Positions 13,445-38,165 of a stretch of 64,000 nt of DNA are shown one piece after another (the first letter of the stretch is position 1; each line of letters begins with the position of its first letter). The notes under the pieces are model-generated. The model did not search any database, was not told where the DNA came from, and worked only from the letters and a program-made list of their open reading frames with translations. The DNA is from Marsupella aquatica (Eukaryota > Plantae > Marchantiophyta). The translations under genes and the position numbers were made by a program. The stretch is from assembly GCA_973895155.1 (NCBI GenBank), contig OZ316896.1, positions 10,776,695-10,840,694 of the forward strand, written 5' to 3'.

Positions 13445-14199
13445 ACTAAAGCTGACTAAGCCAACTTCATCATTTAGATCATTTTGTGCTGTCTAAATTC
13501 ATTTCTATTGCAATGGATACAAATAGCTGCAATGGATACAAATAGATGGTCTATTTTGGTGGAATCTTAGTACTAATGAAGGCCAAATTTGAGAATTAAA
13601 CAAATGTCAGTGAATGATTAGCTTTCCACATAAGATACATATTGGGACACAAATGCATTCTAAGCCAATTTACCTAAGCCGACTTTAAGCCAATTTGACC
13701 TAGGAAAATTAGACCTGAGCTGACCTCACCTACTCCAATCTGACCAGAGAAAACCTTGGCTAAGCCAAGTTGGCCTTTGCCAACCTAATCTATGTAAGCC
13801 AACTTCAAAATTTAGACCTGTCCAGCTTTGCGCATTTTTAATTTCATTTCTATTGGCTAAAAAGGTGTGAATTTATTGCCTGATAGTACAGACATAGCCG
13901 TGTACTCTGGTAAAAGATCAGTGCCACTAGAGCTTGAAGTTGAGAAATAAAAATGTACAAAGATATATAAAATAGACTCAAAAATAGACAAAGCTAACCA
14001 GTGATCAGTTTGCCGCACTATACACAAATGTCTTCTATGTAAGGCCAATGACACCTAAGATGATTTCACCTAAGGCAGCTGATTTACCTAAGTTGACCTT
14101 AAGTTAACCTGACCTAAGCAGATCTGACCTCAGCCAAAATTTATCTGGTTAGTTTGTCGCAAAAGACATGATTAATGCCTTCTAAGCTGATTTGACCTA
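13445..14199. repeat. Degenerate ~15-bp (gacctaagc-core) repeat that the transposon inserted into; continues at 35496-35560
   Basis: Many gacctaagc / ctaagcc / tgacct variants left of the element, and gcagatctgacctaagcc...tgatctgacctagg right of it. Confidence 0.7.
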
Positions 14200-14223
14200 A
14201 ACCCCAATTTAAGGAAAACCGAA
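14200..14223 (+). repeat. Left terminal inverted repeat (preceded by TSD CCTA 14196-14199)
   Basis: aaccccaatttaaggaaaaccgaa; inverted match to 35472-35495. Confidence 0.9.
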
Positions 14224-14469
14224 CTTTGGAAATTCCGAAAATCACTAAATATTATTATTTTAATAAAAAGGGGGCGACATGACGCGTGGCTGCACGTGAA
14301 ACCCTGAAAATGACTGCAACGTCACATTTTAACCAATCCAACTTGACGGGACCAAGAGACATGCTCACGCGAATAATAATAATAATAGAGAAATAAATCT
14401 TTGAGATCCTTTATATATGATAACCAGTATATAAGGAGTTTACAAATAGTTTCTAGAACGACATACAAA

Positions 14470-15198
14470 TTAATCTGATCTCATGTTGACTATTATTTTG
14501 GAAGCGTCCAAAATTGGGCGTTTGTTAAATTGCTCTACTAGATATCTATCTCCATGCCTCTGAATCACAGGGTCTTCCCATAGAGTATGATTATAATCAT
14601 AATCTCTAAAAATAGATTTAACTGACCAATCTGGATAATCTCTTCCATTGGCAATGACAAGCGGCTCACAAGAGTTTGCTAGCTTGCTAAGATACGGAAT
14701 CAGCAAGTTAATCAGGAAACTATCGTCGACCGACCCAAAATATTTGGGCGGAAATAATGATCCAACAACAGGATCTAAACAAGCATGAAATGCATTGGAT
14801 TCGATAAGCATTATATTTTGCTGCAGATACGCCTTCGTATAAATTCAAACCTTCTCAAAACACTTCAAAAATATCCGCTTATTTGATGTCACCCCATCGC
14901 ATAAGTAACAATGAGACTGATCCCAAATATACTTAAATGAGGCCATTTCTATCACAGTAAAAATAGATGCTAAAATCTGATCTAAATGGTTCTTCCCAAG
15001 AGAGGACCAGATCCCTACATCGAAATTCTCAAAACAGAATCTCAAGAATTCGTGAAGATGAGGCCTTGGAAAAACGTATATATTCCCAATCCGAATTCCA
15101 GTTGAGACCGCCATCAGTTGGGAATGCAGTGCACTGTAACAGAGTAGATGCTCCACGTCTAAAACTAAGAGCCCATTTTCTCTGCTGCAATGAATCTC
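14470..15198 (-). pseudogene. FCP1-homology (NIF/HAD) domain, cassette 3
   Basis: LLVLDVEHLL, PRPHLHEFLRFCFENFDVGIWSS, YIWDQSHC, FLKCFEKV, NIMLIES and LFPPKYFG. Preceded by acceptor tctctatag, with no ATG. A single in-frame TGA at 14845-14847 joins the two ORFs. Confidence 0.85.
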
Positions 15199-15266
15199 CT
15201 ATAGAGAAACACAAGAAGATGCATGAGCCCGTATGGATGTAGTCACGCGAATGGTCGCGTCACATA

Positions 15267-15991
15267 TTACAGAGAAAACATCCTCTACACTCTGGCCATT
15301 GATAAGTGACGTCTGTTGAAGTGCTTGATAAGAACTTGATCCGCATGTCTCTACACGTACAGATGCTCCCATATATCCTCGTTCAGATCCCAATCTCGAT
15401 GTAGATTTCTAATCGACCAGATGGGATAATCAAACTTGTTAGCGAACGCAAGACAAAGCCCTGAATTTGATAGCTTTCGTAAATATGGAATGAGGTCATC
15501 CCTCAAAAAGACATCATCCAACGATCCTTGAAACGACTTAGCGAACAATAATCCGCATACAGCTGTCTGGCATGTATGGGAAGGACAGGCATCAATCTGG
15601 ATTATATTCTCTGGTCGATAATCTTGAAAATATCACGTAGTCTCTCGATAGATTTGAAGACAATAGTCTTATAATTTTTTTTCACATAACCAAGATTCCA
15701 GCAATGATCCCGCGTGAACACATATATCAGCTGCGACAGGTCGGTGCTCGACAACACTTCTGAAAGTATCTGATAAACCAGTTTATCGTCGAGAATAGAC
15801 CAGACCATCACATCAAAATGATCATAACAGAATTTTATAAGATCATGAAGATGCGGCCTCGAAACGACACATAGAGATCCGATACGAATTCCGGGTGTCG
15901 ACTTGAGCTGAGGAGTATATTTTGAAACAGAGCACAGGAAGTTTTCCAGTCCTAAAACTAGAAGTTTACGCGACCTGCTCCACTTAGACAC
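15267..15991 (-). pseudogene. FCP1-homology (NIF/HAD) domain, cassette 2
   Basis: RKLLVLGLENFL, RPHLHDLIKFC, FDVMVWS, VFKSIERL, then after a frameshift (~15620) NIIQIDACP...LIPYL. Preceded by acceptor tttacag, with no ATG. In-frame TAG at 15351-15353. Confidence 0.8.
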
Positions 15992-16116
15992 CTGTAAATG
16001 AACAATTCGATTCTCATATTATGCAATTGCAAACAACCACGCGACCCGGCGCGTCACTCCCAAAAGTTCAATTTCAATCAATTTATAAATAATAATTGAT
16101 AATAAACAATAAACGT

Positions 16117-16704
16117 TTACTTATTGGACTTATCCCGGGCTTCTATAGCACGGTCTTTTTTGGCAGATAAGTATTTCATAAATTCGTCAAACTTTTCTAA
16201 ATGGTCTTTATTCCCCTGATTACGAATGATCACGTTTCTCCTCCAAAGATTCGTCTTATCAATATAATCTTTCTCAAGATTTTCTTGAGAGAACATTGGA
16301 ATCCCATATCCACTAAGGAGCTCGCGGAATGTCAACTTGTCAATTGACATGTCACATAGATATGGATATAGTTTCTTTCTAAAAAATAGGTCATCATCGA
16401 GCCCAGAATATGCATCGGGATACATCGATGAATAGAAGTCATTAAGGCTCGTCTTATATGCAGCGTCATCGATAAGAATGACATTCTCGATGTTGTAATC
16501 TTTAATATCGGCGACAATGTTCGAGAGACATTTGACAAATAAAGGGATGTCATTATTATTCTTCCCAATAAGTCGAGTTGATTCTTGTCCCCATATAAAT
16601 TTAATACATTTCAAAACTTCGGGTCAAAGTATCAGCCTTACACAAGATAGAATATTCAGTTTGAACATGCACGACCAGATCGCAATGTCGTATAGATCTG
16701 CCAC
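16117..16704 (-). pseudogene. FCP1-homology (NIF/HAD) domain, cassette 1, N-terminus missing
   Basis: YDIAIWS...FIWGQE...FVKCLS...NVILIDDAAYKTSLN...YPDAYSG...LYPYL; in-frame TGA at 16624-16626. Confidence 0.8.
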
Positions 16705-16942
16705 CTGGGATTAGGCGCCATCTGTACCTGTGATTTTTGTGCTGCAGGGTTTGGAGAACGTACTAGAACGGTCTGTTTGTTTCTCGCCTCCGGACGATCA
16801 CCGGACTTCCGGACTGGTGCCTTCGATACTCGATCAGGGGGTTTTGGGATAGGCTCTTGTAAAACATTAAGAAATGAAAATAAGTTTATAACGCAAACGG
16901 TCGCGTGACTACAAAGAGAGATACTGAAATGAAGTGTATTAC

Positions 16943-17731
16943 CTGTACAAGACGGTCGTTCAGTGCTGGAATTCCACCAAAAATGTCAATCATAGCAGCA
17001 TGGATCCCGGTAACTAGGTTACTTGCGGACGTCAGCTTGCGGAAGTCCATGTCAAATAACGACAAGACTATCTCCCTACGGAATTTCTCAATTTAATCCG
17101 CGGCTAAATTAATTCCGTTTCCTTGACACAAGCACTTGGCGTATCTCAAGATAAACACACCACAACTATGGTCGTCACTCTGGTGAGGAATATCATTCCG
17201 ATATATCCGTTCCCAACCTGAGAGATCCAAGTTGACACCAGTTCTCCAGCCAATTTTGTCGGCGTAGTACTTCCCAACAATATCTAGCACCCCAGGATTT
17301 TGTCGATTATGAACTAGAGAATCTAGGTACTCCAGCCGTTTCTCCTTCGGATACAAGACTACCAATGACCAATGTTCTTTCACAGCATTGTGTACTGGAA
17401 AGACCAGTTTCTCGTATTCACTGATTTTTAGCGGAAACTCCTTTGTCCAAGCTACTCTCTCCTCGTCGAAAATGGTAGGATCCATGGAGAGAAGCTCAAA
17501 ATGGTGTGTTTGGAAGAATTTGACAAGGTCTAACTTTCCAACTCTATCGAGAATCAGTTCGAGAAAACTCAAATAAGCGTTAATTATATCATCGGTGAGC
17601 AACTTGCGCGGTCTCAGACACATCATATGTTTCCTCTGGATCGAGTGTTGTAAGAACTTGGTCAATAGCTCTTCCATATCCTTAGAAGGATCAAGGCATT
17701 GATCTATTCGACTAGCCAAATTTTCAAAAAA
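16943..17731 (-). pseudogene. Ulp1/C48 SUMO-protease domain (part of the multidomain gene)
   Basis: LRPRKLLTDDIINAYL, LVFPVH, EHWSLVV, EYLDSL and IPHQSDDHSCGVFIL show the His/Asp/Gln/Cys catalytic set intact. The C-terminal helix (IEKFRREIV) continues past an in-frame TAA at 17093-17095. Confidence 0.92.
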
Positions 17732-18759
17732 CTGCAAAAAATAGAGATTTCAGTACGCCTTCAAATAACGTACTGAGGTTGTAGCCTAAGGGTTGTAGCC
17801 TCAGAAAACAGAAACAATAACAGATCAATAATAAAATAATGACGTCTATAATAGAAACTTTAAGCTTATAGCTTGCGAATGACCTTTGGATTGGGTGGAT
17901 CCGGCCTTTTCGCAGCTGATCTCTTGGGTGCCTCAATCGCAACAACATCCTTCAGCCCTCCTCGAGACCGCAGTGATCGCTCCACCTGACCAGTTTGCGA
18001 AGGTTGGAGCGATGAGGCGGGAAGACCTTCAAATGGTTGTGGCATTTGATTCAAATATTCCACAATCTGGGAATCCGATTCCAAAATATCCGCTGCCACA
18101 ATTTCTGCGCGAGTCATCTCTGCAATATATCGGGGTCGAGACCACGAACCCGGTCGGGTCAAGTCAGCTGTTAGTCTCTTAACGACTTGAGCCGAGTCTG
18201 GTGCCAAAAACGTTCCCATGTCTTGCACTCGATTCTCGGAAAAGCGGACATTATTGATGATTGTCTCCATTCTGGATGCAGTGGCAGTCTTCTCCTCGGT
18301 AATCAAAAGACCCTTCCAATATTGCAAAGCAAGGACTGCTTGGACTCGGAGCTGCTCCAGTGAATATTTATTCCAATCATCCAACGAGACCGTACTTAAG
18401 GGTGGATCATTAAATTCAAACTTCGGGTGAAGAAAATAGTCTAATATTTTCTTCTTAACTGCAACTGAGGGTGAAGAAGGCTTCTTCAAATTCAGCCTTA
18501 TTTTTGGTAGATGTTGTGCCTCAGGATTAAGCGAAAGATCCTTGGCCCTCTCGGCCTCCTTCCTCGCTGCCTCCAGTCTTGCGGCTTCTTCTCTCTCCAG
18601 TCTTGTGGAATCGACCTTTTCCGCCTCCAACTTCTCTACCTCCACCCTCTTTGGTCTTGCGGTCTCGTCCGCCATCCTCTCGGCCAGCAGCCTCTCAGCC
18701 GCCACACTCTCCGCCTTGGCCCTATTTTCCTCTGTCACTAAAAGGACTCTCGCAGCCTC

Positions 18760-19460
18760 CGCTTTCTCAGCCTGGGCTTTCTCAGCCTCAACATTCTCGG
18801 CCTCTACTTTCTCCGCCTGGGCTTTCTCAGCCTGGGCTTTCTCAGCCTGGGCTTTCTGAGCCTGGGCTTTCTAAGCCTGGGCTTTCTCGGCCTCCGCTTT
18901 CTCAGCCTCCGCTTTCTCAGCCTGGGCTTTCTGAGCCTGGGCTTTCTCAGCCTCCGCTTTCTCAGCCTCCGCTTTCTGAGCCTGGGCTTTCTGAGCCTGG
19001 GCTTCCTCAGCCTCCGCTTTCTCAGCCTGGGCTTTCTCAGCCTCCGCTTTCTCAGCCTGGGCTTTCTCAGCCTGGGCTTTCTCAACCTGGGCTTTCTCAG
19101 CCTGGGCTTTCTCGGCATCCGCTTTCTCCGCCTGGGCTTTCTTAGCCTGGGCTTTCTCAGCCTGGGCTTTCTCCTTCTTCTTCGCGGCAGTTGCTTTTCT
19201 AGTTGTTGCCTTTTTCTTCTTAACCTCCTTCTTTTGAAGCTCCTCTTGTCGGGCCGCCTCTTGTCGGGACGCCTTCTCTTGCCGGCCGCCTCCTTCTTTT
19301 GAAGCTCCTCTTGCCGGGCCGCCTCCTGCCGGGCCGCCTCCTTCTTTTGAAATTCCTCTTGCCGGGCCGCCTCCTGCCGGGCCTCCTCCAGCCTGGCCTC
19401 CTCCTGTCGGGCCGCCTCCTCTCTGGCCTTCTCCTGCCGAGCCGCCTCCTCTCGGTCCAC
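18760..19460 (-). repeat. Coding tandem repeats: (EEAARQ)n then a 15-bp unit encoding (AEKAQ/AEKAE)n coiled coil
   Basis: gctttctcagcctgg / gctttctcagcctcc units on the + strand. They read as a charged helical repeat in the frame of the multidomain gene. One unit carries CAG>TAG at 18871-18873. Confidence 0.85.
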
Positions 19461-20303
19461 CTCATGTCAAGGCTCCTGTGTGGCCTCTTCATCAGAGTCC
19501 TCAACGTCCTCGGAACCCTCCATCTCCTCGTCCTCTTCATCAGCGTCCTCAGCGTCCTTCATCTCCTCTCCGTCACTCTCTTCATCTCCTCTATTGTCGG
19601 AATCTCCGACGTCGTTCTGCGTATCGGTCATCCACTCTGGATCTTGGTCATTGACATCCCCATCCGCATCACCTTCCGCGTCACCTTCCCTCTCACCATC
19701 CGCATCACCATTTCTCCCTGCATCCTCAACATTGAAGCCGCAGTCGACTTGATCTGAATAAAATCAGATCATTTGATAAGAATGACTCACGTGCATATTC
19801 GCGTGAAAAGAAATGTTATGAATGTCCACGCGCATGTTCGCGTGACGCAATAAAAAGTAAGAGGTTTCAAAAGTAACTTACCTTGGATTGGCCCACTAGG
19901 GTACTCCGTTGGTCGAATGTACAATCAATCGGAATCTTCAGAGAGTGCATACTCTTGCAATAATTGATTACAAATATTATCAGGGATATGTTGTTCGTGG
20001 AGGACATCCAAAACATCAGCCCTGAGAGCTGTTACGGATGGACGGTACTTCATTAATTTATCTATACATTTTTCTATACTAGCCCGTATTGGGTCAATCA
20101 ATGACAGCATTGTATCAATTGTCGCCGTGGTGTGTTGCAAGAAACAAGACAACTCCCTATGCGTTGCCACAGGGCAGTAATATTTTACATTGGATTCAGC
20201 ATCCTGTAAAAAAAGCCGAAATTAGTTCACAATATTAATTGAGAATATAATAATCTAAATAATCTTAAAATCAAAACCCCAAAATATAAATCTCAAAACT
20301 TAC

Positions 20304-20846
20304 CATTAAGCACTGGATCAAGTTCGTTCCCTCACCGAAGCATATAGCCCATTCCCCACATTGGACGAATTGACTAACAATACTTTCAAAGAATGGAAGT
20401 ATCTTTTCTGGGGAAGGTGTCGTGAACTCGCCACTCTCTTCAAAATTGGCTATCTTCTCAATCTGATATTTGGAGACCAATTGGAACTCGAGGGCTTGTG
20501 GATCGCCCATTGTGCTGAAGGCCAAGCTGTGAAAAGCGTAGGTTACAATAAGCTTCTTCTCCTTCGGTCGCTTCTAAATATGATGGCTATCGATAGCAAC
20601 GTAGTGTGTGTACTTCCCTAATTCTCGTTTGATTAAGTAAGACTCAACGGGAGAGGCTACAATAATAACCACATGGTGTGGTTTTGTCCCTATCTCGCTA
20701 GTAGCACGAAATAACCCCTCATAGAATGAGCAATTTGGCGGACGCAAATCTCCCATTGATGAGGGATCAAAATAAATCAAGCTCACAAAGTTCTTGTCTT
20801 TACGTATGATACAGTCTGCAAACCCAGCATTTTGTATATCCTGCAA
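20304..20846 (-). pseudogene. Degenerate beta-class N6A/N4C DNA methyltransferase-like domain (part of the multidomain gene)
   Basis: VSLIYFDPSS resembles catalytic motif IV (vdLi.tDPPY). Downstream KILPFFESIVSQFVQCGEWAICFGEGT resembles motifs X-I (KP..l...li...s..Gd.VlD.F.GsG), in beta-class order. Both motifs are degenerate. Confidence 0.4.
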
Positions 20847-21706
20847 GGATCACAATTTCAGCCTCTCACCGACCGGCCGCACTAGTTGGTTTCCTTGACT
20901 ATCAACTGATTTCTGTATTCCTTCGACCAACCTGTAGAATATAGGGTCGATCTCCTTCAACAAATTATCATTACTAATATTTACATTTAAGCACTTCTTC
21001 AGATAACCACTCAACGCATCTCTCAACTGCTTCAGCACCATCTTGTCGAGCTTAAAGCGATCAATCATTCCTTTGACCCGCAATTTCCGCGTTGAATCTG
21101 TCAGAATTTTCAGCTCCGTCCGGGTGGATGTTTCCCCGTTGATTTTACTCAATAATAAAATCTCAAACTCAACTTTCATCTTCTTCTTTATACAGAATTG
21201 CTCCAAACTCATGCTGGTCGTTGACAACACTGGAGCCTCAGAGGACTTCCTCGCCTTCCCAGATTTCACTTTGATGCTTCGGTTTTTGAGTATAGACAGT
21301 CTTCCGCTCAACATATATTCCGCTGCCTTTCAAAGAACCGAGTCTGAGCACCCTTGACAAGAACGGAATGTCATCTTCAAAAGATGATAAGCACACGGAT
21401 TATCCGCAATTTTGACGGCGTCCCTCTGTAAAATTCCGTTGTAAATTACAAGCTCTCCTGTCCTTGATAGTTTGTAGACCTCCATCCACTTCTTGAATGT
21501 TTTGTCCTCCATTGTAAAGAGAAACGGAGCCAATTCTCCAAATTTCATCATTTTGTTCTTCCCCATTTGAGCCCATGGGCAAACAAAACTCGTAGCTCTC
21601 ATAAATACCTGAAAAACAATGGAAACATGACAATTTAAGCTTGACGCGACCGTTTGCATGACAAAAGTTTATACGATAATGTGATCGAAGAGGGTTATTT
21701 ATATAC

Positions 21707-22507
21707 CTTCCAATTTGGATGATGATAATGTGATCCAGGCCGCCCAAATGAGTTCCAGATATTACGACACTGTCGTACAATGGTGAGAAACTGTCCTTCT
21801 TCCATTGATGTTTGATGACAATGGTTCAGAGCTTTCGATAATCCCATCAAATGAACATTATTGTCGTTGTTGAGCGTTGCCCAAAACATTACAGCTTCTA
21901 CAGTACCGCAAGCGTCTCGTACAACTTGGTTGACTTTGTCGTCCTCTCTCAGCAATTTGTACGCCATTATTGTGTGCTGGCCTCTGAGTATCCAAAAATG
22001 ACTGGTCATAATGTCCTCCTCCTTTGGCAATGAATCGTAGGGCGTCCCATTGTAGTCGGGATCTCTGTCGGCCTCCGACTGAACCCACTTCACAGGGACT
22101 AAAAAGCAGCATCGCTTCTCGAAGTTTATAGCCGAATGAGAGAGGAGTGAATTCTTTAGCCTATCTGTGTAATCCTGATTCCACTCTCGGCACTTGATGT
22201 GGTCCGGTGCAAGATGACAACGTGATGTCTCAACAAAAAATGACTTGCTGTTAAATATATTCACAACACTATATTCTTTGAGGAAAGAATCGAACAGAGC
22301 CCCAACATTTGCTGAGGTAATTACTTTCGGAAGATTCTCCGTCGAGTATACTTCAACCTTGCTCACTGGCGGGGCCTTACCCAAGCGAAATCCCTGGTTG
22401 AAAGGAACTCTCTGGAACTCAAGTACGTCCATAATGTATTGACAAATCAAATCTCCCGTTGATGCCTCTGGATCGGAAGGATATCCCACACTAGTAACCT
22501 TTTCCAA
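21707..22507 (-). pseudogene. ParB/Srx-like domain (N-terminal part of the multidomain gene)
   Basis: IKCREWNQDYTDRLKNSL...CFLVPV...FWILRGQHTIMAYKLL resembles the ParB-type R...V..L...(I/L)xGxHR/T..A signature. Confidence 0.65.
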
Positions 22508-22781
22508 GGCGTGCCTTGCACCTAGAAGATCATTGATTCTGGGCTGATTGAAGGTTACATATTGCGTTCAATCCAAACAAATGCTTATTTTGTCTTCCTG
22601 CTGGTCGTCGCTGACTAGCAGAACCAATCCCTCTGTACACTCTTTAACTTTCATGTTCTTCTCAAAGAAACACCCGAGAATTTTTTATCTCTCCAAAACT
22701 GTAGCTTTATCATTTCTTGCCACCACAAGACGGACAGCCCCATTGCGAACGACTATTCCAAAATCGGATATCTCAGTCGAT

Positions 22782-23288
22782 TCAAAGAGATGGATACTCT
22801 TTTTCATCTAACCAAAACCAAAGGTTCCTAAACGTGTCAAGTTCAGATCCTTCAAATCCACCCAGAATGTCCAGCGGTGGGAGAGTTCTGATGGATTCTG
22901 TAAATCCTAATGCTACACTCCGTGAAGTCAAATGCCTTCGAAGCGATTCATATCCTGGTCTATCAGTGAAGTCGTAAGCTACCAAGGTGACCGTCGCCCA
23001 AGTACTACTATAAGTAACTATGTGGCACCACTTCTTACTGACTGTTCGAATGGTGATCAAGTCCATGACCCGATTTTTAATCGTAGTATCCGACAAATTC
23101 CCAAGATAGTGGAAAAACTCTTTGACTAATGGCCAAATATATTTCTCGACAATATCGTCCGGAAGACCGGGTATCAGGTCTTCAGCTTGACTCCATATCA
23201 TGTTTCGGTTCATAACCTTTGCACGTGCAATGCGCTCCATCATCATTTGACGATGAGATTTTTGATTCATGTCAAAGGATTGCAGCAT
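22782..23288 (-). CDS. F-box-like protein 1 (168 aa, intronless, transposon cargo)
   Basis: LIPGLPDDIVEKYIWPLV...LITIRTVSKKWCHIV is a plant F-box signature with an insertion. The reading frame is open. Confidence 0.75.
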   Translation of the reverse strand: MLQSFDMNQKSHRQMMMERIARAKVMNRNMIWSQAEDLIPGLPDDIVEKYIWPLVKEFFHYLGNLSDTTIKNRVMDLITIRTVSKKWCHIVTYSSTWATVTLVAYDFTDRPGYESLRRHLTSRSVALGFTESIRTLPPLDILGGFEGSELDTFRNLWFWLDEKEYPSL

Positions 23289-23322
23289 AATATGGAAAAG
23301 ATTAAGAACAAGAACCTATCCA

Positions 23323-23889
23323 TTAAGAACTTGGACCACCAAGATTCTGAGAAAATCTACCAAACCTTTCGATTAGGACATCTCGTTCTTCCTCATCTAA
23401 ATTGTTATATTTGTTCGTAAACAATGCGATTTCGTCAGAAGTAGTAGTCCCAAGAACAGATATTTCTGGAAGCATAGAAATATCCTGTCGAATAACTCGA
23501 CAGACTGAGTCAAACTCCAACTCGTCAGTTTCGGGTATGTCGTAAAGAGCATCATTTGCGACATCGACAATCCGGTTTGCTTGTTTGAGGATAGCCCATA
23601 ACTTTGTATTTGTAACTAAAAAGTTCCACTTCTTGCTACAAGCTCCAAGCCGAATAAGGTCTCGGACCCTATCGATAACCAAATTGTTATCGAGGTGTCG
23701 ATATCCACGCAATCTTTCAATTGAAATAAAGTGTTCATAGAGTATTGGCCAAATGTTTGAAATGACCAAAACATCTGGTATTCCTCCAATGAGACTAGAG
23801 GAGGTTTCATCCAGCGTATCCCATATTGTTTTCTGTTTCTTTTCATGAGTTGAAAGGAAATCTTGAGCCTCATTCAAAAGTTGGCTCAT
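23323..23889 (-). CDS. F-box-like protein 2 (188 aa, intronless, transposon cargo)
   Basis: LIGGIPDVLVISNIWPIL...LIRLGACSKKWNFLV; paralogous to its neighbours. Confidence 0.75.
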   Translation of the reverse strand: MSQLLNEAQDFLSTHEKKQKTIWDTLDETSSSLIGGIPDVLVISNIWPILYEHFISIERLRGYRHLDNNLVIDRVRDLIRLGACSKKWNFLVTNTKLWAILKQANRIVDVANDALYDIPETDELEFDSVCRVIRQDISMLPEISVLGTTTSDEIALFTNKYNNLDEEERDVLIERFGRFSQNLGGPSS

Positions 23890-23954
23890 CCTGCTTTTAT
23901 CATATCACAAAACATTGTTAGAAGACATACGACGCGCTTGGTCACGTAAGTTAA

Positions 23955-24506
23955 CTAGAATTCCTTAAAAGCATAGATGTCACCCTCAAGGTATCCAACT
24001 TCGTGGCATCTGATTGTAAATTTCCATTTTTCAAGAGGGTGAAGAGCATCGTAAGTCTTTGTGAAGAGTTCCCTAAGATCTCTGGACATTGACCCCATGA
24101 ATTTAATTCTTGGGTATTTTTGGAAGAAACTTTGAACTGTCGATGAGAGAGACTCATTTCCGATCGGTTTAGTAGGATTTCCTGGGAAAGCCAAATCTAA
24201 TAAACTCAACTTGATTACACCCAGAAGATAGGTATTCCCAACAAGGTGACGCCATCTGCGACACACCGAAGATAGTCCTACAAACTCATCCAATTCCTTT
24301 ATTGAGAAATTTCCTGCATTAGCCGAGGAATTAAAAGTCTCCTGGATCCGAGGCCATATCAATTCCGCGACAATGAAATCTGGAAGTCCAGGTAGTAGTG
24401 TTTCAATAAATACAGAATATCCCGCCAGTAGACCATCTTGGCTTCTGTCCAAAACGTCAAATATTGGGCATAGATATCTGAAGCTCTTCAGACCAGGTTT
24501 GCCCAT
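23955..24506 (-). CDS. F-box-like protein 3 (183 aa, intronless, transposon cargo)
   Basis: LLPGLPDFIVAELIWPRI...VGLSSVCRRWRHLV; paralogous to its neighbours. Confidence 0.75.
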   Translation of the reverse strand: MGKPGLKSFRYLCPIFDVLDRSQDGLLAGYSVFIETLLPGLPDFIVAELIWPRIQETFNSSANAGNFSIKELDEFVGLSSVCRRWRHLVGNTYLLGVIKLSLLDLAFPGNPTKPIGNESLSSTVQSFFQKYPRIKFMGSMSRDLRELFTKTYDALHPLEKWKFTIRCHEVGYLEGDIYAFKEF

Positions 24507-24639
24507 GACTCTTTTCAGCCAAATGATATATCCTAGAGATTATTTTCACGCGACTGGTCGCGTCTACAAATCAGAATGCATAAACAATTCTTTGAGAGAC
24601 TAATTTTTTCGGGTCACAACGTGAAAAATCATAAATGTT

Positions 24640-25505
24640 GCTTCGTCCTCTAACAGAACCAGTCAATGAGAGAGCAACCTCAGACGCGACTGGTCGCGTC
24701 AACTGAACCTAAACAACTATATCCACTGAACCTTCTGTGGAGATTTGGATATGGTACGCGCTCAGTAAATCTATCCAGTTTCCTTCTCACACGCGACTGG
24801 TCGCGTCAACTGGTCCTAAAAGGAACCTTACCTCCTCTAACAGAACCAGTCAATGAGAGATCTACATCAGACGCGACTAGTCACGTCAACTGGTCCTAAA
24901 AGGAACCTTACCTCCTCTAACAGAACCAGTCAATGAGAGAGCTACCTCAGACGCGACTGGTCGCGTCAACTGAACCTAAACAGCTATATCCATTGAACCT
25001 TCCTTGTGGAGATTTGGATATGGTACGCGCTCAGTAAATCTATCCAGTTTCCTTCTCACAGCGACTAGTCGCGTCAACTCGTCTTAAAAGGAACCTTATC
25101 TCCTCTAACAGAACCAGTCAATGAGAGAGCTACCTCAGACACGACTGGTCGCATCAACTGAACCTAAAGAACTATATCCACTAAACCTTCCTTGTGGAGA
25201 TTTGGATATGGTACGCGTTCAGTAAATCTATCCTGTTTCCTTCTGACACGCGACTGGTCGCGTCAACTGGTCCTAAAAGGAACCTTACCTCCTCTAACAA
25301 AACCAGTCAATGAGAGAGCTACCTGACGCGACTGGTCGCGTCAACTAAACCTAAACAACTATATCCACTGAACCTTCCTTGTGGAGATTTGGATATGGTA
25401 CGCGCTCAGTAAAATCTATCCAGTTTCCTTCTCACACGCGACTGGTCGCGTCAACTGGTCCTAAAAGGAACCTCACAATATTTTCACGTGACTGGTCGCG
25501 TCAAC
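24640..25505. repeat. Internal tandem array (~187-bp unit plus an ~80-bp partial) rich in ACGCGACTGGTCGCGT palindromes
   Basis: cctctaacagaaccagtcaatgag recurs at about 24647, 24834, 24914, 25102 and 25291, with two palindromes per full unit. The array lies upstream of the F-box/ParB cluster. Confidence 0.92.
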
Positions 25506-28044
25506 AGCTCAAACAACTTTTGGACAATAGGATAATACAGTGATACAACTGTGATTACTGACCCGTACGGACAAGGAAATCCGAGTAAGCATGATTTCAT
25601 TCATTTGTATTCATTCATGAACTTTACAATAATTCAGATGTTTGAGCTCTGTCATTGTGAAACTATTATATATCAGAAGTTTAGAGAATGATCCAGTTAA
25701 GATGATTCAATTTAGCAGTCTACTGGTTGTATTCGTCAATTAAAGGATTCAGTGTAATGAGATTCACATAACATGAGAGTTTATATGATTAAATTCACAG
25801 CGTGCAAGTTTGTAATGACTTACTTAAGACGATTTAGGTTGTATTTTAATTAGTGAGTTTGTATGATTCACACATATTTGAGTTTACAAACAAACCGCAT
25901 TATGAAAACTGTGCTTAACAATCAAGAGAAATTTTAGCAAACCACAATCAACACCAGCAGAAAATGTAGAAATTACACCTGAATTCTGAAAAATTGATGT
26001 AATCGTTTGAGAGATTGACATCCAAGCACTTGAAGACCTTGCTGCGGCATTCCAGAAAGTAAATATAAGATTGAAGATATTAATATGCTAAGCAACAACA
26101 ACACAGCTTCTATACTTCTATACATAGAGCTTCGCTGCCACCAATTGAATAACATGTGCTTAATGCTAAGGAGCTCATTATGTCGAGTTAAAAAGACTCT
26201 TTCAAAAGTACAATCAAAGCTGTGGATAGGCAAACTGAGCATGAATAAAAGCGCACTAAACCTGAAGATTCAAAGAGATGAAACAAACCTGAATGCTGAA
26301 TGGAAGGAGCTAAAACAAGCTGCCAAAAAGTAGTTCGAGCTGCTGAAACACGTTGATCGAGCTGATATGAGCTTAAAATTGGCTGACACGAGCTGATACA
26401 AGCACTCCCAAAAAGCTAGCTGCAACGAACTAGCAAACTAGAAGTGAATACGAGTTGTAAATGCGAGCTGCAATGCGCCAACGAGCTCCTGGTCGAAACG
26501 ATGGACAACTACTAAGAGCTGCAACGCGCCGACAAGCACCTGACCACAACGAACAAGCTGCAACGACAAAAATGAAATCCAGGGCAGGAGCAAGAGCGAG
26601 AGCGACGAGAGTGAGAGAGAGAGCGACGAGAGCAGGCACGCGAAAGTCTAGGGAGCAAGAAACAACAACAATGAACAATGAACTCGAGACCGTGGGCGCC
26701 GACACTAAGAAAGGACTAATTAGGGTATTGTTTTAGCATAACCCTAATAACAGCCTAGCGACAGGAAGGTTCCAAATGATCTTCGTACACTCCACCATCG
26801 ACTGAACAAACTATGCAATCGTGAAAAAAAGATTACCAGATTCCTTTTGATTTGCCGTACTAAAGGAGATTTCTATTTGATCGCCAATTTGAAATTTAAA
26901 CCGGTAATTATGCAACTGCGAAAGATTGTTAGTGGGGACCCCCGGATCCGTATCTTCACTATATCTGCCAATTCAAATCCAAAATGTGAACGAATGACAA
27001 CTTTCTCACGATTGTTCCATCACGTAGTGGAGGCGAACTTCAAAATCATTCCATTTTGGTAGTGGAGACCGTCGGATCCGGATCCGTACTCCACTCTCTA
27101 TCTTGCCAATTCAAACCCTTACTCTAAACAACGTAAAACGATTCTCACGGTCGGGGAGAACCGATATTCAAAATCAATCTTATACAATGATTCTCACGAC
27201 TGGAGACTCAACCAATTTTCAAAATCAAAATCGAGTCCAGATGAACACATCCTCCATGGAGTCAATAGACTGATCTCATTGCTCACGGATCATTCTTAAT
27301 TTTCAATTTCTCCTGACCAAGATACTAGGCTCTCAGCGGAGGCTGATCCAAGGCACATTTGAGGTGGAGCAGATTGGATCATTCAACTATTCCAGTCGGA
27401 GGCGGAGCTCATTCAAGCAACGATGGCGCAGTTCTTGTAGTATCACCTTCAATCTTGGGGAGAGCACATCCGATCAAGCAGGAGAGTTGCGACGAAGCGA
27501 GACGACAAACATTTAGAACCTCCATAGTCTGCCTCATTCATCAAAGCATTCTAGCGGACCAACAAAGAGCGGCTATTCTGAAATCACAGTCTGGTCAAGG
27601 ATTTTGATCTTGATACGATCAACAAGTTGTCATTCTCTGGTGGTGGGATTCGATCATGATACTCAAGGAAATTGGAGTTCGAAGGAGGAGGCTTAGTTGG
27701 CTGGGACGAGGAGGCTACGCTGGAAGGAAGAGGCTTGGCTGGGAGGAGGGTTTCCGCCAACATCGGAGGGTTGCCACCAACATTTGCTCAGACCACACGC
27801 AACTGAATAACTTGTAAGTATCAATCAGCATTAATTCCGCAATAAATGAGGAGAGTAGTTGCCTTAAATCACGCATTCAATGCATGAATTGAGTCAATGA
27901 AGTTATGGTCCAATTTCTCACTCCGATTTTGATCAATCCGTGTTTCAAGTCCAATACAGAAGCAATGTATCAAAAGTACTAGTAGAGGATCCGAATGAAT
28001 TCTCTAGTCTAAAATTGTATGGCGTACGCGTATAGTTGTCCGTA

Positions 28045-29000
28045 CGTTTTGCTATTGTTTATTGTAGTCGACGACCTAGCAAAACGAAACATAATCGAGG
28101 TCCATTTTTGAGATCTTCCTAATCTCAACTTGTTAGTAGGATGACCTGTTTTTTGGTTACACATGTAGTTTGTCACGTGCACAGTCGCTTGAACCAATTT
28201 ATCTCGTGTCTTTTGATATTGTTTATTGTAGTCGACAGCCTAGCGAATTGGCCAGCAATCTATTTTAAAACCAACGTCTTCGTTTCATCACGCGCACGGT
28301 CGCGTTAATTTTTTAGAGGTCAGCGAAAGCTCTGCACTCTTAGACGTAATCGCCCTTTATTTCTCAGATCTTCCTGATCTCAACTTGTTAGTAGGATGAC
28401 CTATTTTTTGGTTACACATGTAGTTCATCATGCGCACAGTCGCGTGAACCAATTTATCTCGTGTCTTTTGATATTGTTTATTGTAGTCGAAAGCCTAGCG
28501 AATTGGCCAGAAATCTATTTTGAAACCGAGTTCTGATTCACGCAACCGGTCGCGTTAATGTTTTAGAGGTCAGCAAAAGCTCTGCACTCTTAGACGTAAT
28601 CGCCCTTTATTTCTCAGATCTGCCTTATCTCAACTTGTTAGTAGGATGACCTGTTTTTTGGGTTACACATGTAGTTCATCAGGCGCACAGTCGCGTGAAC
28701 CAATTTATTTTGATATTGTTTATTGTAGTCGACTGCCCAGCGAATTGGCCAGAAATATATTTTAAAACCGAGGTCTTCGTTTCATCACGCGCCCAGTCGC
28801 GTTAATGTTTTAGAGGTCAGCGAAAGCTCTGCACTCTTAGACATAATCGCCCTTTATTTCTCAGATCTGCCTGATCTCAACTTGTTAGTAGGATGACCTG
28901 TTTTTGGTTACACATGTAGTTCATCACGCGCACAGTCGCGTGAACCAATTTATCTCAGGTCTTTTTGATATTGTTTATTGTAGTCGACAGCCTAGCGAAT
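28045..29000. repeat. Internal tandem array (~250-bp unit, ~4 copies) with ACGCG-N6-CGCGT motifs
   Basis: tctcaacttgttagtaggatgacc occurs at about 28123, 28377, 28628 and 28875. Motif copies such as acgcgcacagtcgcgt and acgcgcacggtcgcgt are in each unit. Confidence 0.92.
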
Positions 29001-29205
29001 TGTCAGTCAGAGGAATCTTGATTTTTCCTTGATTGCAAAAATGGTTACATCCATCCCAAAGGACTTCGGATGTGGAATCCATATCCACTAGCACTATCCA
29101 GGAATTTAAGCTACACAATATCTATAACAAGTTCTAACTTGAACTACTCTTGAATCTGTAGTTCTAATCTTCGACTACTCAAAATATTTGTTGACTTCGA
29201 TCGAG

Positions 29206-29748
29206 TCAGTCATTCCAAGATGAAGGCATCCACTCATCGGTGTCTGGTGTGGATTCCCTTGAATCCAAAAATTCTTCCTTTGCCCAAGTCCTAACGTCCA
29301 TAGATTTTCTCGGCTTTCTCTTTCTGTAATACAAATCAGAATCTTCGTTCATCTCTAATTGCCTTTTCTTCGGTGCGTCCACTTTCTTGGCCTCCTTCTT
29401 GACTGTCTTAGCGTCTGCTGCTGCTTCCCCCAAAATGGATTCGACGCATGCTCTGGCCTTCAACTTTTCCCCCCTCGAAATAGATTCCACGAGGGCTTTG
29501 CCCTTTAACTTCTCCCCTGATGCCATCTTTGTAGTCATCTCTGTCGGATTGGTCTCCATCTGATCTTCCATCAACAAATGTGGCGAACAATGTCGTCTCT
29601 CACAAAACATTTGACCCGATTTAGTCATCGTAAACATTATATTACATCGCTGACACATTCTGTAAGGAATACCATGAATTTGATACGTCAAACCTTCTAA
29701 ATTGTCCGTCGGAACATCCTCATTCTTCGAGCTCAGCGGAGTAGTCAT
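29206..29748 (-). CDS. Small Cys4 (putative zinc-binding) protein with basic NLS-like patch, 180 aa, transposon cargo
   Basis: Intact ATG-to-stop ORF with CQRC-x13-CERRHC, YYRKRKPRK and an acidic tail. A TATAAA lies on the minus strand about 130 bp upstream (~29878-29883). The ORF is divergent from the transposase. Confidence 0.6.
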   Translation of the reverse strand: MTTPLSSKNEDVPTDNLEGLTYQIHGIPYRMCQRCNIMFTMTKSGQMFCERRHCSPHLLMEDQMETNPTEMTTKMASGEKLKGKALVESISRGEKLKARACVESILGEAAADAKTVKKEAKKVDAPKKRQLEMNEDSDLYYRKRKPRKSMDVRTWAKEEFLDSRESTPDTDEWMPSSWND

Positions 29749-30064
29749 CGCCCTTCAAACAAGAGATGCTGACCGAGACTAAGAATTGGAAATGAGAGAG
29801 CTGATGTGCGAATAGATTATCCAGTAGCCAGAAAGTGGAATGCGTGGGGGAATGAGCAATAGGGATCATCTCAATGCTTTATACTGTTTAGTCTCCACTA
29901 GTCATTGTACATAGTGGTTTCTAGAAGAGGGTGCGCGTTTGACTGGCGCGTATTAGAATTGGCGGGAAGTTCAGTTGTCCTCTAATTATGGCTTTAATTT
30001 CACGTTTGGCGACCGCCCCGGGAATACTGATTGCTAGTGAAGTACTGAGATTTCTTATGAAGGT

Positions 30065-30800
30065 CAGTAGTTACTAACTGTCCGGTGTCCACTCATTGGT
30101 AAACTGGTATTGTCCACTCATTTTTCCTGAGTGGAGTTGAAATGATTGTTCGGTAATCAATTGTAGTCGTTCTCATTCACTTGAAATGACTGATGGACCA
30201 TGCATTATCTTTACCGGTATGTGTGATGCCTTTAGATCCGTAATTGTATCTTCCTGTCTCACGCGCAATCGTATCTTACTTATGAAGTACCAATTACGAG
30301 CTAGAGTTTGGGCCTAGCCTTCTAGCTTCTACGTCGTAGACCTTGTACCCTCTGACTAAGGTCACGCGACATACCTTTAGATCCGTAATTGTATCTTCCT
30401 GTCTCACGTGCAATCGTATCTTACTTATGAAGTACCAAGTACGAGCTAGAGTTTGGGCCTAGCCTTCTAGCTTCTACGTCGTAGACCCTGTTATCCCTAC
30501 ACCCTCTGACTAAGGTCACGCGACTAGTCGCGTGCAAGGCAGTGCATAATTGACTATATTCTGCCTACTTATTGACGGTTGTGACAGGACAATGCAGTTC
30601 ACAGACATTTTACTGGCGCTTATTAGCACTACTGTCCTCAGTAGTTACTGACTGTCCACTCATTTGTTCTAAGTGGATGTGAAATGATTGATCGTAATCG
30701 ATTGTGGTCATTCTCATTCATTTGACATGACTGATGGACCATGCATAGTCTGTTGCCGGTATGTGTGGTACCTCTAGGGTCACGCGACCAGTCGCGTGCA
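30065..30800. repeat. Direct duplications in the divergent promoter region upstream of the transposase
   Basis: An ~145-bp unit occurs twice (30229-30370, 30374-30525). 30065-30225 resembles 30640-30765. The perfect palindrome cacgcgactagtcgcgtg is at 30517-30534 and a near-perfect copy at 30781-30798. Confidence 0.85.
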
Positions 30801-30924
30801 GCGCAGTGCATTAACTACATTCTGTTTATTGACCGACGTGATAGGACAGTGCAGTGAAATTGACGGACGTGACAGGACTGTACGCTTACAGTGATATTCT
30901 CTGATGTGCAGGATCATAATTATT

Positions 30925-33900
30925 ATGGTGACATCGACAGTCTGGATCAGGGAAGGCGGACAAGTTATTATAGGCATACGTGAGAAATAGGTTGGAAAAG
31001 GTCGCGTGATAAGTCTTGATCCTTCTAGGGTTTGTCACAATGTTCCTCTTGGGGCGGACAGAGTTATTCTTCTATTGGAGGAAGTTTTTGACGAGACCAT
31101 TCTATGCGAAGATGGCGAACTTTTGAAGGACATGATTGGGGGTTACCTTGTATGGGAAAGGAATCAGCTTTTTCGAGCTCCCATGGAATTGGAGGATGTG
31201 TTTGGCACTGTTGGTGATGATCAGGATCCAGTCAATCAAAATTCTGATGGGAACAACCATAATGAGAGTCGGTCTGGTGTGGAAGTAGTTTTACCAAAGG
31301 CCTTGTGGATGGGCATGCCTGTAAAGGTGGTGGATGAGAACAAGTTGATTTTTGCAGTGGCAACTATACATGTTCTAGATCCTATAGTGAAGCTTGGGGA
31401 TGTCACCCTTGGGAATACACATGTGGGAATTCTGATCAACGATTTTGTCGAGGGAGCTACCATAGATCATCTGAAGCATAGAGATTGCTTAAAAGCTTGG
31501 TCGATGGACCAACTCATTGCCAAGGATGGCAACTTGTTGTCTTTCCACAACATCAGGCAAGCTGTGGGAGGGAACACATCTCCAACAAGTGGCAAGCGGT
31601 CCTACATCCATAAAAGTAGGAAAAGAAAGAGTCCATCTTCCCAGACATCTAGAAGAGACACATCTTTGGCACGTCAAGATGTGTTGTTGATAAACACTAA
31701 GGACTGTTGTAGTGAACATTGTTGCCAATATTTGGACCGCAACTTGGCTATGGCAATTAGGCAAAAGTGGTGGTCAAAATCTTTTGCGGAGCGCAAGGAG
31801 GAGGAAATCAAGGCTATTAAAAATACAATACACTTGGGTACTTGAGAAAGGATTCTAGCAGTGGAGGGCAAAGTATTGTGCTTGGAGGCATGGAGAATCA
31901 TTCATTCAAGAGGAAAGACTCAATTTTATGCCTTGAAGAAGACTGTGATGGCTGGAATGAACATAGGTACCCATGGTAATGCTGGAAAAAGGCGTATGTC
32001 CGAGAAAGTATCTCAAGCGTTCATGTTAATGAAAGAGATTATTGAGGAGGCAGCTGATCATCATCCAGCCAAGTTGAGAACCATGGCAGATAATACAAGG
32101 ATGGTTTTGAGGGAATTGCCAACAAATCTTACTTGGGAGAATATTAGAAACAGGGTTAATGTTGTCAACCAGGAGGCTGGTCTTCCTCCAATTTCCCAAC
32201 CCACCTTGGGTCATCTACATCAGATGTATTTCAGGGAGTTCTCACGTCACAAAAAGGGCACCAACTTTTCAAAGTGTACAACTTGTAGTGAGTTGCTTCA
32301 ACGGAAAGCAAACCTTACAGGAGCTAAGGAAGAGTTAGAGGGCCTAAGGCGTGACGAGGAGGAACATCACCAAGACCACACACAACAAAGAATGTGCTAT
32401 CATACCTGGAGATATGAGTCCATCCATCGTCCAAAGGAAGTGTTATGCCTTATTCATGATAAGATGGATCATTCAAAGACAGCCTTCCAAGAATGCCCTT
32501 CAATCCTAAGCATGTGGATGGTGCCCAAAAGTTCCCAATTACTGTCACTGGTATCCTTACTCATGGTCATGGTCCCAAGGCCATAGCCCAATATCATGTT
32601 GGAGTGTGGCCAGGTGATGTCAACATCACTATTGGGTCAATTGATTCAATACTAAGGATGTTGGAAAACCCAAATCCAATGATCAAATCACTTGTGGAGG
32701 GGCCAGACTCGACAAGTCTTTTTAAAGACCTCCTTTTTGGGAGAGCAGATATCTTGGAGGCAAGTGTCCTTAGAGCATTTGAGGATGACATTACCTACAT
32801 CTCAAGCCTAGGTACTTTACTCACAATCCTTTAATTTATTATTATTTAATAATATAAGCTCACACACACACTGACACTCTACTTTGTGTAGTTGTTGCTC
32901 CTCCTAGCCAAGGTTTCATTAATAGGGTTTAAACCCTAAACCCTAAATTGGGGTTTAGAGTCTGACTAGGGTTTTATTTAAAAGCATTCTGAGATTGTTA
33001 CATTGTGATGCAGTACCTGAGGCACCAAAGTTCAGGCCCCTTCCACGAGTATTGAAGCTACAACTGGATAATTGTGCCTCAGACAACAAGAACAGATATA
33101 TGATGGCTTATTTGTCATTGTTGACGGCAAGGGAGGTGTTTGAAGAGGTTCATCTTGGTTTTATGGTGGTTGGGCATACTCATCTCGGGGGTTTCACTTC
33201 CACAAAAATGGCATATCACGTGCGACGAAGTATAGGGTCATTTTATTGGTTCAAAGGGAAGACTTAAGAATTTTCTGAGAAGAACAATAGGGTCTTTTAA
33301 ATCCAATTTTGAGACTTATAAGAACATTAGGGTCCTTATAACCAAAATTTTGGAATATTCCAAGAATATTCCAACTTTATAGGGGTTGAAAAAATAAAAA
33401 AAATTATTATATTTTAGGGGGTCCGAGGCCTAAAAACGTCGCAAGTGATAGGGAGGCATCCGTATAGTGAGACCCCTGAGATACTCATGAGGACGTTGAC
33501 GGTATGTTCGGGCATTTTTCAGAGTCTATGATGCATAACCCCACATACTCATTGCCTGAGTTAATGTCCTTGTTCATGAGAGCAAGGGCACCCAATGCAG
33601 TCCCACATTTTCTACAGGAGGTCCCAGATTTCAAAAACTACTTAGCTCCATTCATGTTGAAGGGCCCTGAGGCATTGGTGGGGCATTTAAAACCCAGGCT
33701 GTTTAGGTTCTATGTTCGTCATGATAGTATGCCATGCTTCCAATACAAAATGAAGTCAACTGATCAGGGATGGTTACCCAAGGAAGGTATTGAAATGTGG
33801 TCATGGAAAGATGACAAAAGTCCTCACATCCCAATTGGGGTGCCCAAACGGCTACCAATGATGGAGTTGAAAATGCTTCCTGAAGTGCTGACAGGGTTGA

Positions 33901-34607
33901 AGAAGCATGTGTCATTCTTTGAGTTTATTCTAAAGCAAACAAAAGAGGAAGAACCAAAGCGACATTGGACAACTCTCATCAATTATTGGAATGACATTGT
34001 AGATACTCTACAGGGTGAGCAGGTGCAATATGAACCTGAAGGTGCACACAACTTGGAATACGGGTTTTGGCCTTTATCAATATGGAGAGAGCACGTTCCA
34101 CCAGAATATCGAAATGTGGCATGTGAGTTGGAGGCAACAGTGGATTATGTGGGACCAGCAAAAGATAAACCTCCTGAGAGTTTTAACCCTAGGGTTGATG
34201 TTGTGAAGGGCTGTTATGTGTTGGTACGGCCGGACGACTCAGACCTGGATGTTTATCCTGTCCATATGGGGTTAGTTGTTACAGATGTGGTAGAAGGACC
34301 AGTGAATGAACAAAACCTTCTTACTCATGTATGTGGCGTTGAGTGGTTTAGACCATTTATGGCAAAGAAGCAACGTGGTCAATCAGACTGGCAGCCAAGA
34401 GAGCGGTGGGCAGATTCTTGGGATAAGAAATGGGAACGTGATCCATCTCCCATATACAAGGAAGCTGAGACAATAGATGTTTCCTCTGCCTTGTGGTGTT
34501 TCAAAGCACGCAAAGGACCAGTGACAGGGCTGGTAGGAATTCCAAAGAATGTTGTTGTCGAGGCAAGAGACTATCTCTTGACATGCATAGCAAGTGACAA
34601 ATCCTAG
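30925..34607 (+). pseudogene. DDD transposase (Sola-like / DUF7869-type), disrupted
   Basis: Stitched from ORFs 31006-31845, 31861-32586, 32493-32834, 32995-33267 and 33504-34607. Catalytic-type motifs are LCLIHDKMDHSKT, VTGILTHG, LQLDNCASDNKN and VGHTH|EDVDGMF. Cys/His motifs are CCSEHCC, LCLEAW and FSKCTTC. ATG is at 30925. Lesions: TAG 30988, TGA 31843, a 1-bp deletion near 32485 (KTAF-PRMP) and the MITE at 33184-33480. A GT-AG intron runs 32812-33013, possibly containing a 21-nt mini-exon at 32892-32912. Confidence 0.85.
33184..33480. mobile_element. 297-bp MITE with 8-bp TSD (ATACTCAT), hAT/P-type TSD length
   Basis: TSD atactcat at 33176-33183 and 33481-33488. TIRs ctcgggggtttcact / agtgagacccctgag match 13/15. 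A subterminal inverted pair tatcacgtgcgacg / cgtcgcaagtgata is present. The interior is AT-rich and non-coding. Removing the MITE restores VGHTHEDVDGMF. Confidence 0.92.
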
Positions 34608-34699
34608 ACAGTAATGAAGCATGTAGTTTAGCATACAGTTTAAAAGGCAACTCAGAATTGTAGTAGCCAGAGAACTCAAGTTTAGACAAGTCTTATCGT

Positions 34700-35277
34700 C
34701 TAAGTTAGTTAGTTGGTTAGTTTATTTAAGATATAATATTAGTTAGTGGGGCCTTAGTTTGGTGATATTAAGGCATGATATTATTGACATTCAAATGAAT
34801 GTCCAGTAGACATTGTAATATACAACAATCCTATTAATAAATAATAATTATAGTTACACCCTCAAGTGAACTCAACTTTCAATGATTTCTGATTTTATAT
34901 GGTTCCATGCCTGATTGAGTCAAAGCAATAGAAACTAACTAATTAAAGGGTGATACTATAATTGTAGGTCACGCACCTTGGTGCATGTCAATCTTTTTTG
35001 TATTCAACCCTATAGTAATTAAATAGACAAGTTAGTTAGTTGGTTAGTTTATTTAAGATATAATATTAGTTAGTGGGCCCTTAGTTTGGTGATATTAAGG
35101 CATGATATTATTGACATTCAAATGAATGTCCAGTAGACATTGTAATATACAACAATCCTATTAATTGTTGTAAATAAACTAATTAATTAAAGGGTGGTAC
35201 TTACTATGATTGTAGGTCACGCACCCTGGTGCGTGTCAATCTTTTTTGTATTCAACCCTATAATAATTAAATAGACA
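34700..35277. repeat. Subterminal direct repeat (~325-bp period, 2 copies) near the right TIR
   Basis: agttagttagttggttagtttatttaagatataatattag...atcctattaa and gtaggtcacgcacc...aaatagacaa each occur twice. Confidence 0.88.
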
Positions 35278-35471
35278 ATTGAAACAATGAATGATAGTTT
35301 AATTAAGGATTTGTGTATGGATCAAGAGGTACTTGATGTCATTTAGTGATGCATTGTTATAAAGATCTTGCAACAAAACATTTGAAGTTTTTGACTATCC
35401 CACCAAATGTTAAAGAGGTTGATCATTCATTAACTAATAATATTTAGATAAAATTGAAATTAATCTAATAC

Positions 35472-35495
35472 TTCAGTATTCCTTAAATTGGGGTT
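35472..35495 (-). repeat. Right terminal inverted repeat (followed by TSD CCTA 35496-35499)
   Basis: ttcagtattccttaaattggggtt; reverse complement aaccccaatttaaggaatactgaa. Confidence 0.9.
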
Positions 35496-37449: not shown

Positions 37450-38165
37450 CAAACTAATTTTGATATTAAGGTATGTCTTTTTGTGAGTGCATGATTCTCA
37501 TTGAGGCTATGGAAGCAAGAAATGACTAAATTTGATATTTAGACTATCCGTTTGTGAGTCATGATTCTCATTGAGACTATGGAAGCAACACCTTACTAAT
37601 TTTGATATTTAGACTATCCTTTTGTGAGTCATGATTCACATTGAAGCTATGAAATCAAAACCCTGACTAATTTGATGTTTAGACTATAATTTTGATATTT
37701 AGACCATCGTTTTGTGTTGTGAGTCATGATTTGCATTGAAGCTTTGAAAGCAAAACCAGACTAATTTTGTTATTTAGACTATCGTTTTGTGTTGTGAGTC
37801 ATGATTCGCATTGAAGCTATGAAAGCAAAACCTGACTAATTTTGATATTTAAACTATCTTTTTGTGTTGTGAGTCATGATTCGCATTGAAGCTATGAAAG
37901 CAAAACCTGACTAATTTTGATATTTAGACTATAATTTTAATATTTAGACAGTTTGTGAGTCATGATTCGCATTGAAGCTATGGAAGCAACACCTGACTAA
38001 ACACCTGACTAATTTGATATTTAGACGATTATCCTTTCGTAAGTCATGATTCGCATTGAAGCTATGGAAGCAACACCTGACTAAACACCTGACTAATTTG
38101 ATATTTAGACGATTATTATCCTTTCGTGAGTCATGATTCGCATTGAAGCTATGGAAGCGACACAT
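37450..38165. repeat. Tandem array of ~60-80-bp units (~10 copies) directly upstream of oxidoreductase 1
   Basis: gtgagtcatgattcgcattgaagctatggaagcaa...ctgactaattttgatatttagac is repeated head to tail. Confidence 0.92.

Follow-up and report, generated by a model that had tools for sequence, protein, structure and literature searches.

The accessory gene of a Sola1-type transposon in a plant-like host encodes a protein that probably goes back to a fusion of ParB with a methyltransferase. Both parts have lost their catalytic letters, and the protein probably binds palindromes within the element's own DNA; to this combined reading we give about an even chance of being right. Giant transposons with ParB-methyltransferase helpers have so far been described from algae, where they were proposed to methylate their own DNA; the plant-like case suggests that the enzyme chemistry is dispensable and that DNA binding is retained. 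What is new here is a palindrome set confined to the non-coding DNA of the element, together with retention of CpG in the palindrome-bearing arm only.

The element lies within a 64-kb window (the whole stretch of DNA that was analysed) and is 21,296 bp long, delimited by 17-bp perfect terminal inverted repeats (14200-14216 and 35479-35495) and by a 4-bp target duplication, CCTA/CCTA, at 14196-14199 on the left and directly following the right repeat, up to 35499. Its termini read AACCC. A broken, CpG-depleted transposase gene (30991-34607, plus strand; QLDNCASDNKN...GHT|HEDVDG) matches the Pfam family DUF7869, which we take to be the Sola transposase, at 42 bits against a cut-off of 26, and the DN..DNKN and GHTHED motifs are present. 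Based on termini, target duplication, transposase and layout, the element is classed as a Sola1-type DNA transposon. The accessory gene is located on the minus strand, opposite the transposase, and the proposal of the first-pass annotation that it belongs to a transposon is thus confirmed by the repeats, the duplication and the opposite-strand transposase, which also set the limits of the element. A miniature element of 297 bp with an 8-bp target duplication (33184-33480), hAT-like by the length of that duplication, sits inside the GHTHED motif of the transposase, and short plant-telomere-like TAAACCC repeats occupy 32920-32990 in an apparent transposase intron. Both flanks of the element (13600-14199 and 35496-35560) consist of a loose GACCTA(A/G)-containing repeat, the source of the CCTA target.

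The remaining cargo is also carried on the minus strand. It comprises NIF/FCP1-like phosphatase-domain genes in tandem (14470-16623; Pfam NIF on two of the four pieces scanned), an Ulp1 (Peptidase_C48) protease domain (17093-17749; E 9e-16) that retains the H, D, Q and C motif residues, and three tandem F-box-like ORFs (22782-24539; Pfam E 0.002-0.015, under the curated cut-off). Upstream of the cargo arm, a 182-aa minus-strand ORF (29206-29754) contains CxxC and Cx4C pairs, a possible zinc ribbon; a family search with this ORF gave no match above cut-off.

Three motifs had been reported in the accessory gene, and all were found at their place on the minus strand: RGQHTIMA (21985-21962), VSLIYFDPSS (20786-20757) and KILPFF...FGEGT (20405-20325). 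They had been assigned to one reading frame, which does not hold, as the frame of RGQHTIMA differs from that of the other two and the gene is spliced. Exon 1 (21707-22807) encodes the ParB/DUF3723-like domain and has two stops. A predicted phase-0 intron (21706-21609; GTATAT..TCAG), which contains one decayed palindrome at 21643, would join the two frames in phase. Exon 2 (20304-21608), with three stops, encodes a basic, helical middle region followed by the methyltransferase-like region (around 20880-20304), in which VSLIYFDPSS corresponds to the motif IV strand and FGEGT (20339-20325) to motif I. A second predicted phase-0 intron (20303-20204; GTAAGT..ACAG) follows motif I, and exon 3 (19882-20203) contains a TGA at 19927-19925, after which the frame has no stop as far as a GTAAGT donor (19881). 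We infer the splice sites from consensus sites, phase and the matches to two homologues, P0004 and P0005, which end at the predicted donors.

The gene is probably longer than 19882-22807, since the frame continues past the TGA at 19927 and, through an intron at 19881-19754 that holds two palindromes, joins in-frame a likely further exon (17866-19753, minus strand) with an acidic tract and 15-nt KAE-type repeats, which is broken in this copy. P0005 extends 42 residues beyond exon 1 on the 5' side, and the real 5' end may lie upstream of 22807. The 15-nt repeats form long arrays (17866-19466, minus strand) that encode KAQAE, KAEAE and EAARQ units, and contigs of the family carry a 1-base insertion behind 19283 relative to the window copy.

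The spliced product from 22807 comprises 894 codons and has five internal in-frame stops, at 22687 (TAA), 22570, 21332, 20852 (TGA) and 20576 (TAG). That this is nevertheless a real coding sequence is argued by the two stop-free homologues, of which P0005 matches exon 1 (49% over 358 aa) and P0004 matches exon 2 (50% over 446 aligned columns). The word-based search for homologues returned one match per exon, and none among longer proteins. No relatives were found in metagenome, prokaryote and viral contigs or among phages and plasmids, and we found no land-plant description of such a gene in the literature, where coverage of subscription papers was thin.

The family form of the gene was read from contigs of public sequencing runs, labelled as several organisms, that cover the region, by comparing their majority letters with the window copy. 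Only 18-19 places differ across 19900-21345 in each of three runs, and the majority letters open four of the five stops (22687, 22570, 20852 and 20576); for the stops at 21332 and 19927, close to the end of a contig or stretch, there is no comparison row. In the dominant family contigs there is no majority change in DPSS or FGEGT, and P0004 is equally degenerate, with IYLDCSV and FSEGK at the corresponding positions. Motif loss therefore belongs to a coding-competent family. The first-pass annotation had offered a dead binder or post-insertion decay as the reason for DPSS, and had proposed a family consensus in which DPP(Y/F/W) and FxGxG might be restored; with the stops opened and both motifs unchanged in the dominant form, decay is ruled out as the cause and the dead binder is favoured. 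In one run (X2), the main contigs have a depth of 410-510 compared with 28-50 for divergent contigs which, although depth is not copy number, suggests that the family was recently amplified.

The N-terminal part is supported as ParB-like by its nearest clusters in the ESM Atlas and by the counterpart published for an element of this kind, described below. Residues 195-418 of P0005 scored 0.96 with DUF3723 clusters (183 of 256 features) and 0.91 with a ParB_N cluster, on a scale that is uncalibrated for parts of proteins. Searches of Pfam, PHROG, NCBIfam and PDB sequences gave no ParB match, HMMER found no match between the domain and PF12520, and a first AlphaFold model, built from an input of 2-3 sequences, had a pLDDT of 31. 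In both the window copy and P0005, the GxxR position reads GQHT (21985-21962 in the window), so that the arginine is missing. According to the accessible part of a study that covers phage ParB-N6_N4_Mtase fusions, this arginine is required for NTP binding (PMC12704722). The ParB-likeness proposed at first pass thus has support, with the GxxR motif absent.

The closest published system is Sola1-1_Ec32 of Ectocarpus, a 21,549-bp element whose termini read AACCG and whose 4-bp target duplications show a bias towards a final A. Opposite the transposase it encodes a 1104-aa protein with ParB-like and N4C/N6A methyltransferase domains that was proposed to bind and modify its own element, as given in the accessible part of the report (PMC12477816). 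Compared by layout and description rather than by protein sequence, our element agrees with it in its length of about 21 kb, AACC- termini, 4-bp target duplication ending in A and a ParB/methyltransferase-like gene opposite the transposase. As far as that description extends, our element differs in its plant-like host, its degenerate catalytic motifs, the mapped internal palindromes and the Ulp1, NIF and F-box-like cargo. The accessory system is a plant-like, motif-degenerate variant of the published Sola1 accessory system; the architecture was therefore already known, and the precedent raises the prior for methyltransferase descent. The fusion of ParB with a beta-class methyltransferase had also been noted at first pass as a known architecture, and phage ParB-N6_N4_Mtase fusions with the same domain pairing and the beta motif order do exist in the accessible part of the literature on them (PMC12704722), with no sequence link to the accessory gene found. 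A suggested connection to the N4C methyltransferases of Marchantia did not hold up: MpDN4MT1, in the accessible part of its description (bioRxiv 10.1101/2021.02.12.428880), is a stand-alone host enzyme that keeps TSPPY, and no sequence link to it was found.

Largely on this precedent and on the order of its motifs, we lean towards descent of the C-terminal part from a methyltransferase. The catalytic (D/N/S)PP(Y/F/W) is absent: the window copy reads DPSS, as does the dominant family form, and P0004 reads DCSV. The SAM-binding FxGxG is degenerate as well (FGEGT in the first two, FSEGK in P0004). Motif I is also shortened, and in a 37-sequence profile alignment the acidic residue that should follow it is missing, the strand in exon 3 reading VKYYC. 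Profile comparisons used two beta-class methyltransferase profiles, of 11 and 37 sequences, the 11-sequence test following removal of a single alpha-class row from alignment A3, and an accessory family alignment of two sequences per exon. The best local hhalign match to the 11-sequence profile aligned the DPPY strand with VSLIYFDPSS (P 0.023, probability 2%), and that to the 37-sequence profile placed EKILPFF...FGEGT on motif I. A lax hhalign path was colinear over 193 columns with motifs IV and I in register, but was not significant, as 41 of 150 shuffles reached the score; in the glocal profile test only one shuffle in 150 did so, yet reversing the sequence gave a higher score than the real one.

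It is possible, if improbable, that the ParB-like binder is real but that DPSS and FGEG are chance look-alikes in an unrelated C-terminal alpha/beta domain. Consistent with this, searches of Pfam, PHROG, NCBIfam and PDB sequences gave no methyltransferase match, the ESM Atlas returned scores of 0.81 or less only, no significant match in sequence or structure connects the region to any methyltransferase, and the DP and FG letters are unconserved in P0004. A second AlphaFold model (pLDDT 32.7) has predicted strands and helices that, in our reading, follow the beta-class order; Foldseek and VIA listed no methyltransferase for it, with a best Z of 6.0 to STAS domains, a result that is uninformative at such confidence. 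The chance reading is opposed by the published gene with ParB and methyltransferase domains, which occupies the equivalent place in an element of this kind, and by two separate local alignments in register on motifs IV and I, with the beta order and a fitting spacing. Methyltransferase descent, as put forward at first pass, thus retains the support of motif order and precedent, while the profile tests for it were non-significant.

The candidate binding site of the protein is a palindrome, CACGCG-N6-CGCGTG, which occurs 24 times with up to two mismatches compared with 0.30 expected. All 24 occurrences fall within the element and outside any ORF, though ORFs cover 12.5 of its 21.3 kb; with three mismatches allowed, 29 lie inside the element and three outside. 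The sites are found within accessory-gene introns, in the gaps separating cargo genes and in two tandem arrays, one palindrome-rich with a unit of about 188 bp (24547-25502) and one with a unit of about 250 bp (28174-28942); two perfect palindromes lie directly upstream of the transposase (30517-30798).

The palindrome-bearing arm also differs in composition. CpG observed/expected is 0.85 in cargo coding DNA versus 0.30 in transposase coding DNA (p 1e-7), is 0.82 in the cargo arm with palindromes masked, and is 0.43 and 0.58 in the flanking DNA. The change is a sharp step at the transposase start, with values of about 0.85-0.9 over 14200-30900 and about 0.3 over 30901-35495. This step could mean that the cargo arm was protected over a long time, or that the element is of chimeric origin. 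The first-pass idea that the module shields its own DNA is not borne out for the window copy, in which CG and CHG sites account for 12 of the 14 C-to-T type changes and for 220 of 602 cytosines (p 2e-4); this bias indicates that the copy was methylated after insertion. The decay in CHG context, together with a BFN-domain gene at 56.4 kb, makes the host look like a plant.

Binding of the palindromes might instead fall to the transposase or to a host factor, with the ParB-like protein acting, for example, as a scaffold or as an Ulp1-linked de-SUMOylation partner, which we consider unlikely. Perfect palindromes cluster directly upstream of the transposase, the gene appears to run through acidic, coiled-coil repeats toward the Ulp1 domain, and neither an HTH nor any other domain for reading DNA was recognised, all of which would suit such an arrangement. 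The distribution of the sites, which are in accessory-gene introns and between cargo genes and are not packed at both termini, argues against it, as does the fact that an unrelated red-algal element pairs ParB genes with inverted repeats. Catalysis by the protein, as an N4C or N6A methyltransferase that marks the element through a non-canonical active site, is very improbable, because although the Ectocarpus counterpart is predicted as such an enzyme and CpG is kept in the palindrome-bearing arm, both sequences lack (D/N/S)PP(Y/F/W), motif I has been shortened with loss of its next acidic residue, and replacing the Ser and Tyr of SPPY in rotifer N4CMT abolishes activity; the earlier suggestion that the module marks its own DNA by methylation is accordingly disfavoured, the catalytic letters being missing in the dominant form and P0004 alike.

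On the best reading, the accessory protein is a catalytically dead self-binder that would help to keep the element expressed, with a possible anti-silencing role proposed by analogy with VANC. In the proposed mechanism, dimers of the protein would bind the 18-bp palindrome, with the methyltransferase-like part serving as a DNA-gripping or dimerising scaffold rather than as an enzyme. The bound sites would be those in the introns of its own gene, in the gaps between cargo genes and in the tandem arrays upstream of the transposase, a placement from which binding would be expected to leave these CG-rich sites transcriptionally accessible along with the cargo genes near them, much as VANC acts on VANDAL elements. 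Against the self-binder, the window copy was unshielded after insertion, the transposase could bind the palindrome, and the CpG contrast could be chimeric. Since a candidate site is specified and the family seems to have spread recently, the self-binding idea is directly testable. A bolder version, which we regard as doubtful, is that a disarmed ParB/parS-like pair serves as the transposon's anti-silencing system, sparing the cargo arm from CG methylation across evolutionary timescales, as an independent VANC-like invention from a phage-type fusion, possibly with Ulp1 on the same polypeptide.

VANC and KIU of Arabidopsis VANDAL elements bind a short motif in the introns and tandem repeats of their own element and lower methylation, and some VANDAL anti-silencing members carry Ulp1, according to the accessible parts of the reports (PMC5735166, PMC13317346). 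The resemblance is an analogy in how the systems might work, in that a short motif is enriched in the non-coding DNA and tandem repeats of the element. As described there, VANC and KIU differ in belonging to Mutator-like elements, in recognising a non-palindromic 9-bp motif and in their proven activity, whereas activity is conjectural here and there is no sign of homology.

ParB-like genes that adjoin inverted-repeat arrays have also been described in PAG3 and PAG2, the giant Plavaka DNA transposons of Bostrychia (bioRxiv 10.1101/2025.02.11.637652). In the accessible part of that account, these differ from our element in belonging to the EnSpm superfamily, in having ParB fused to a putative 2OG oxygenase and in encoding the methylase as a separate gene. 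Fungal DUF3723 (PF12520), to which the nearest Atlas clusters of the N-terminal domain belong, is likewise mobile-element cargo, but is carried by tyrosine-recombinase elements. It is a conserved Starship cargo of unknown function in the accessible part of its description (PMC9156397), and the accessory gene studied here could hint at the function of this related gene.

Outside the element, the window contains a tandem array of 70-95-bp units at 37450-38200 and, on the plus strand, a host-type exon with a bifunctional nuclease (BFN) domain at 56411-56854 (Pfam E 2.5e-12).
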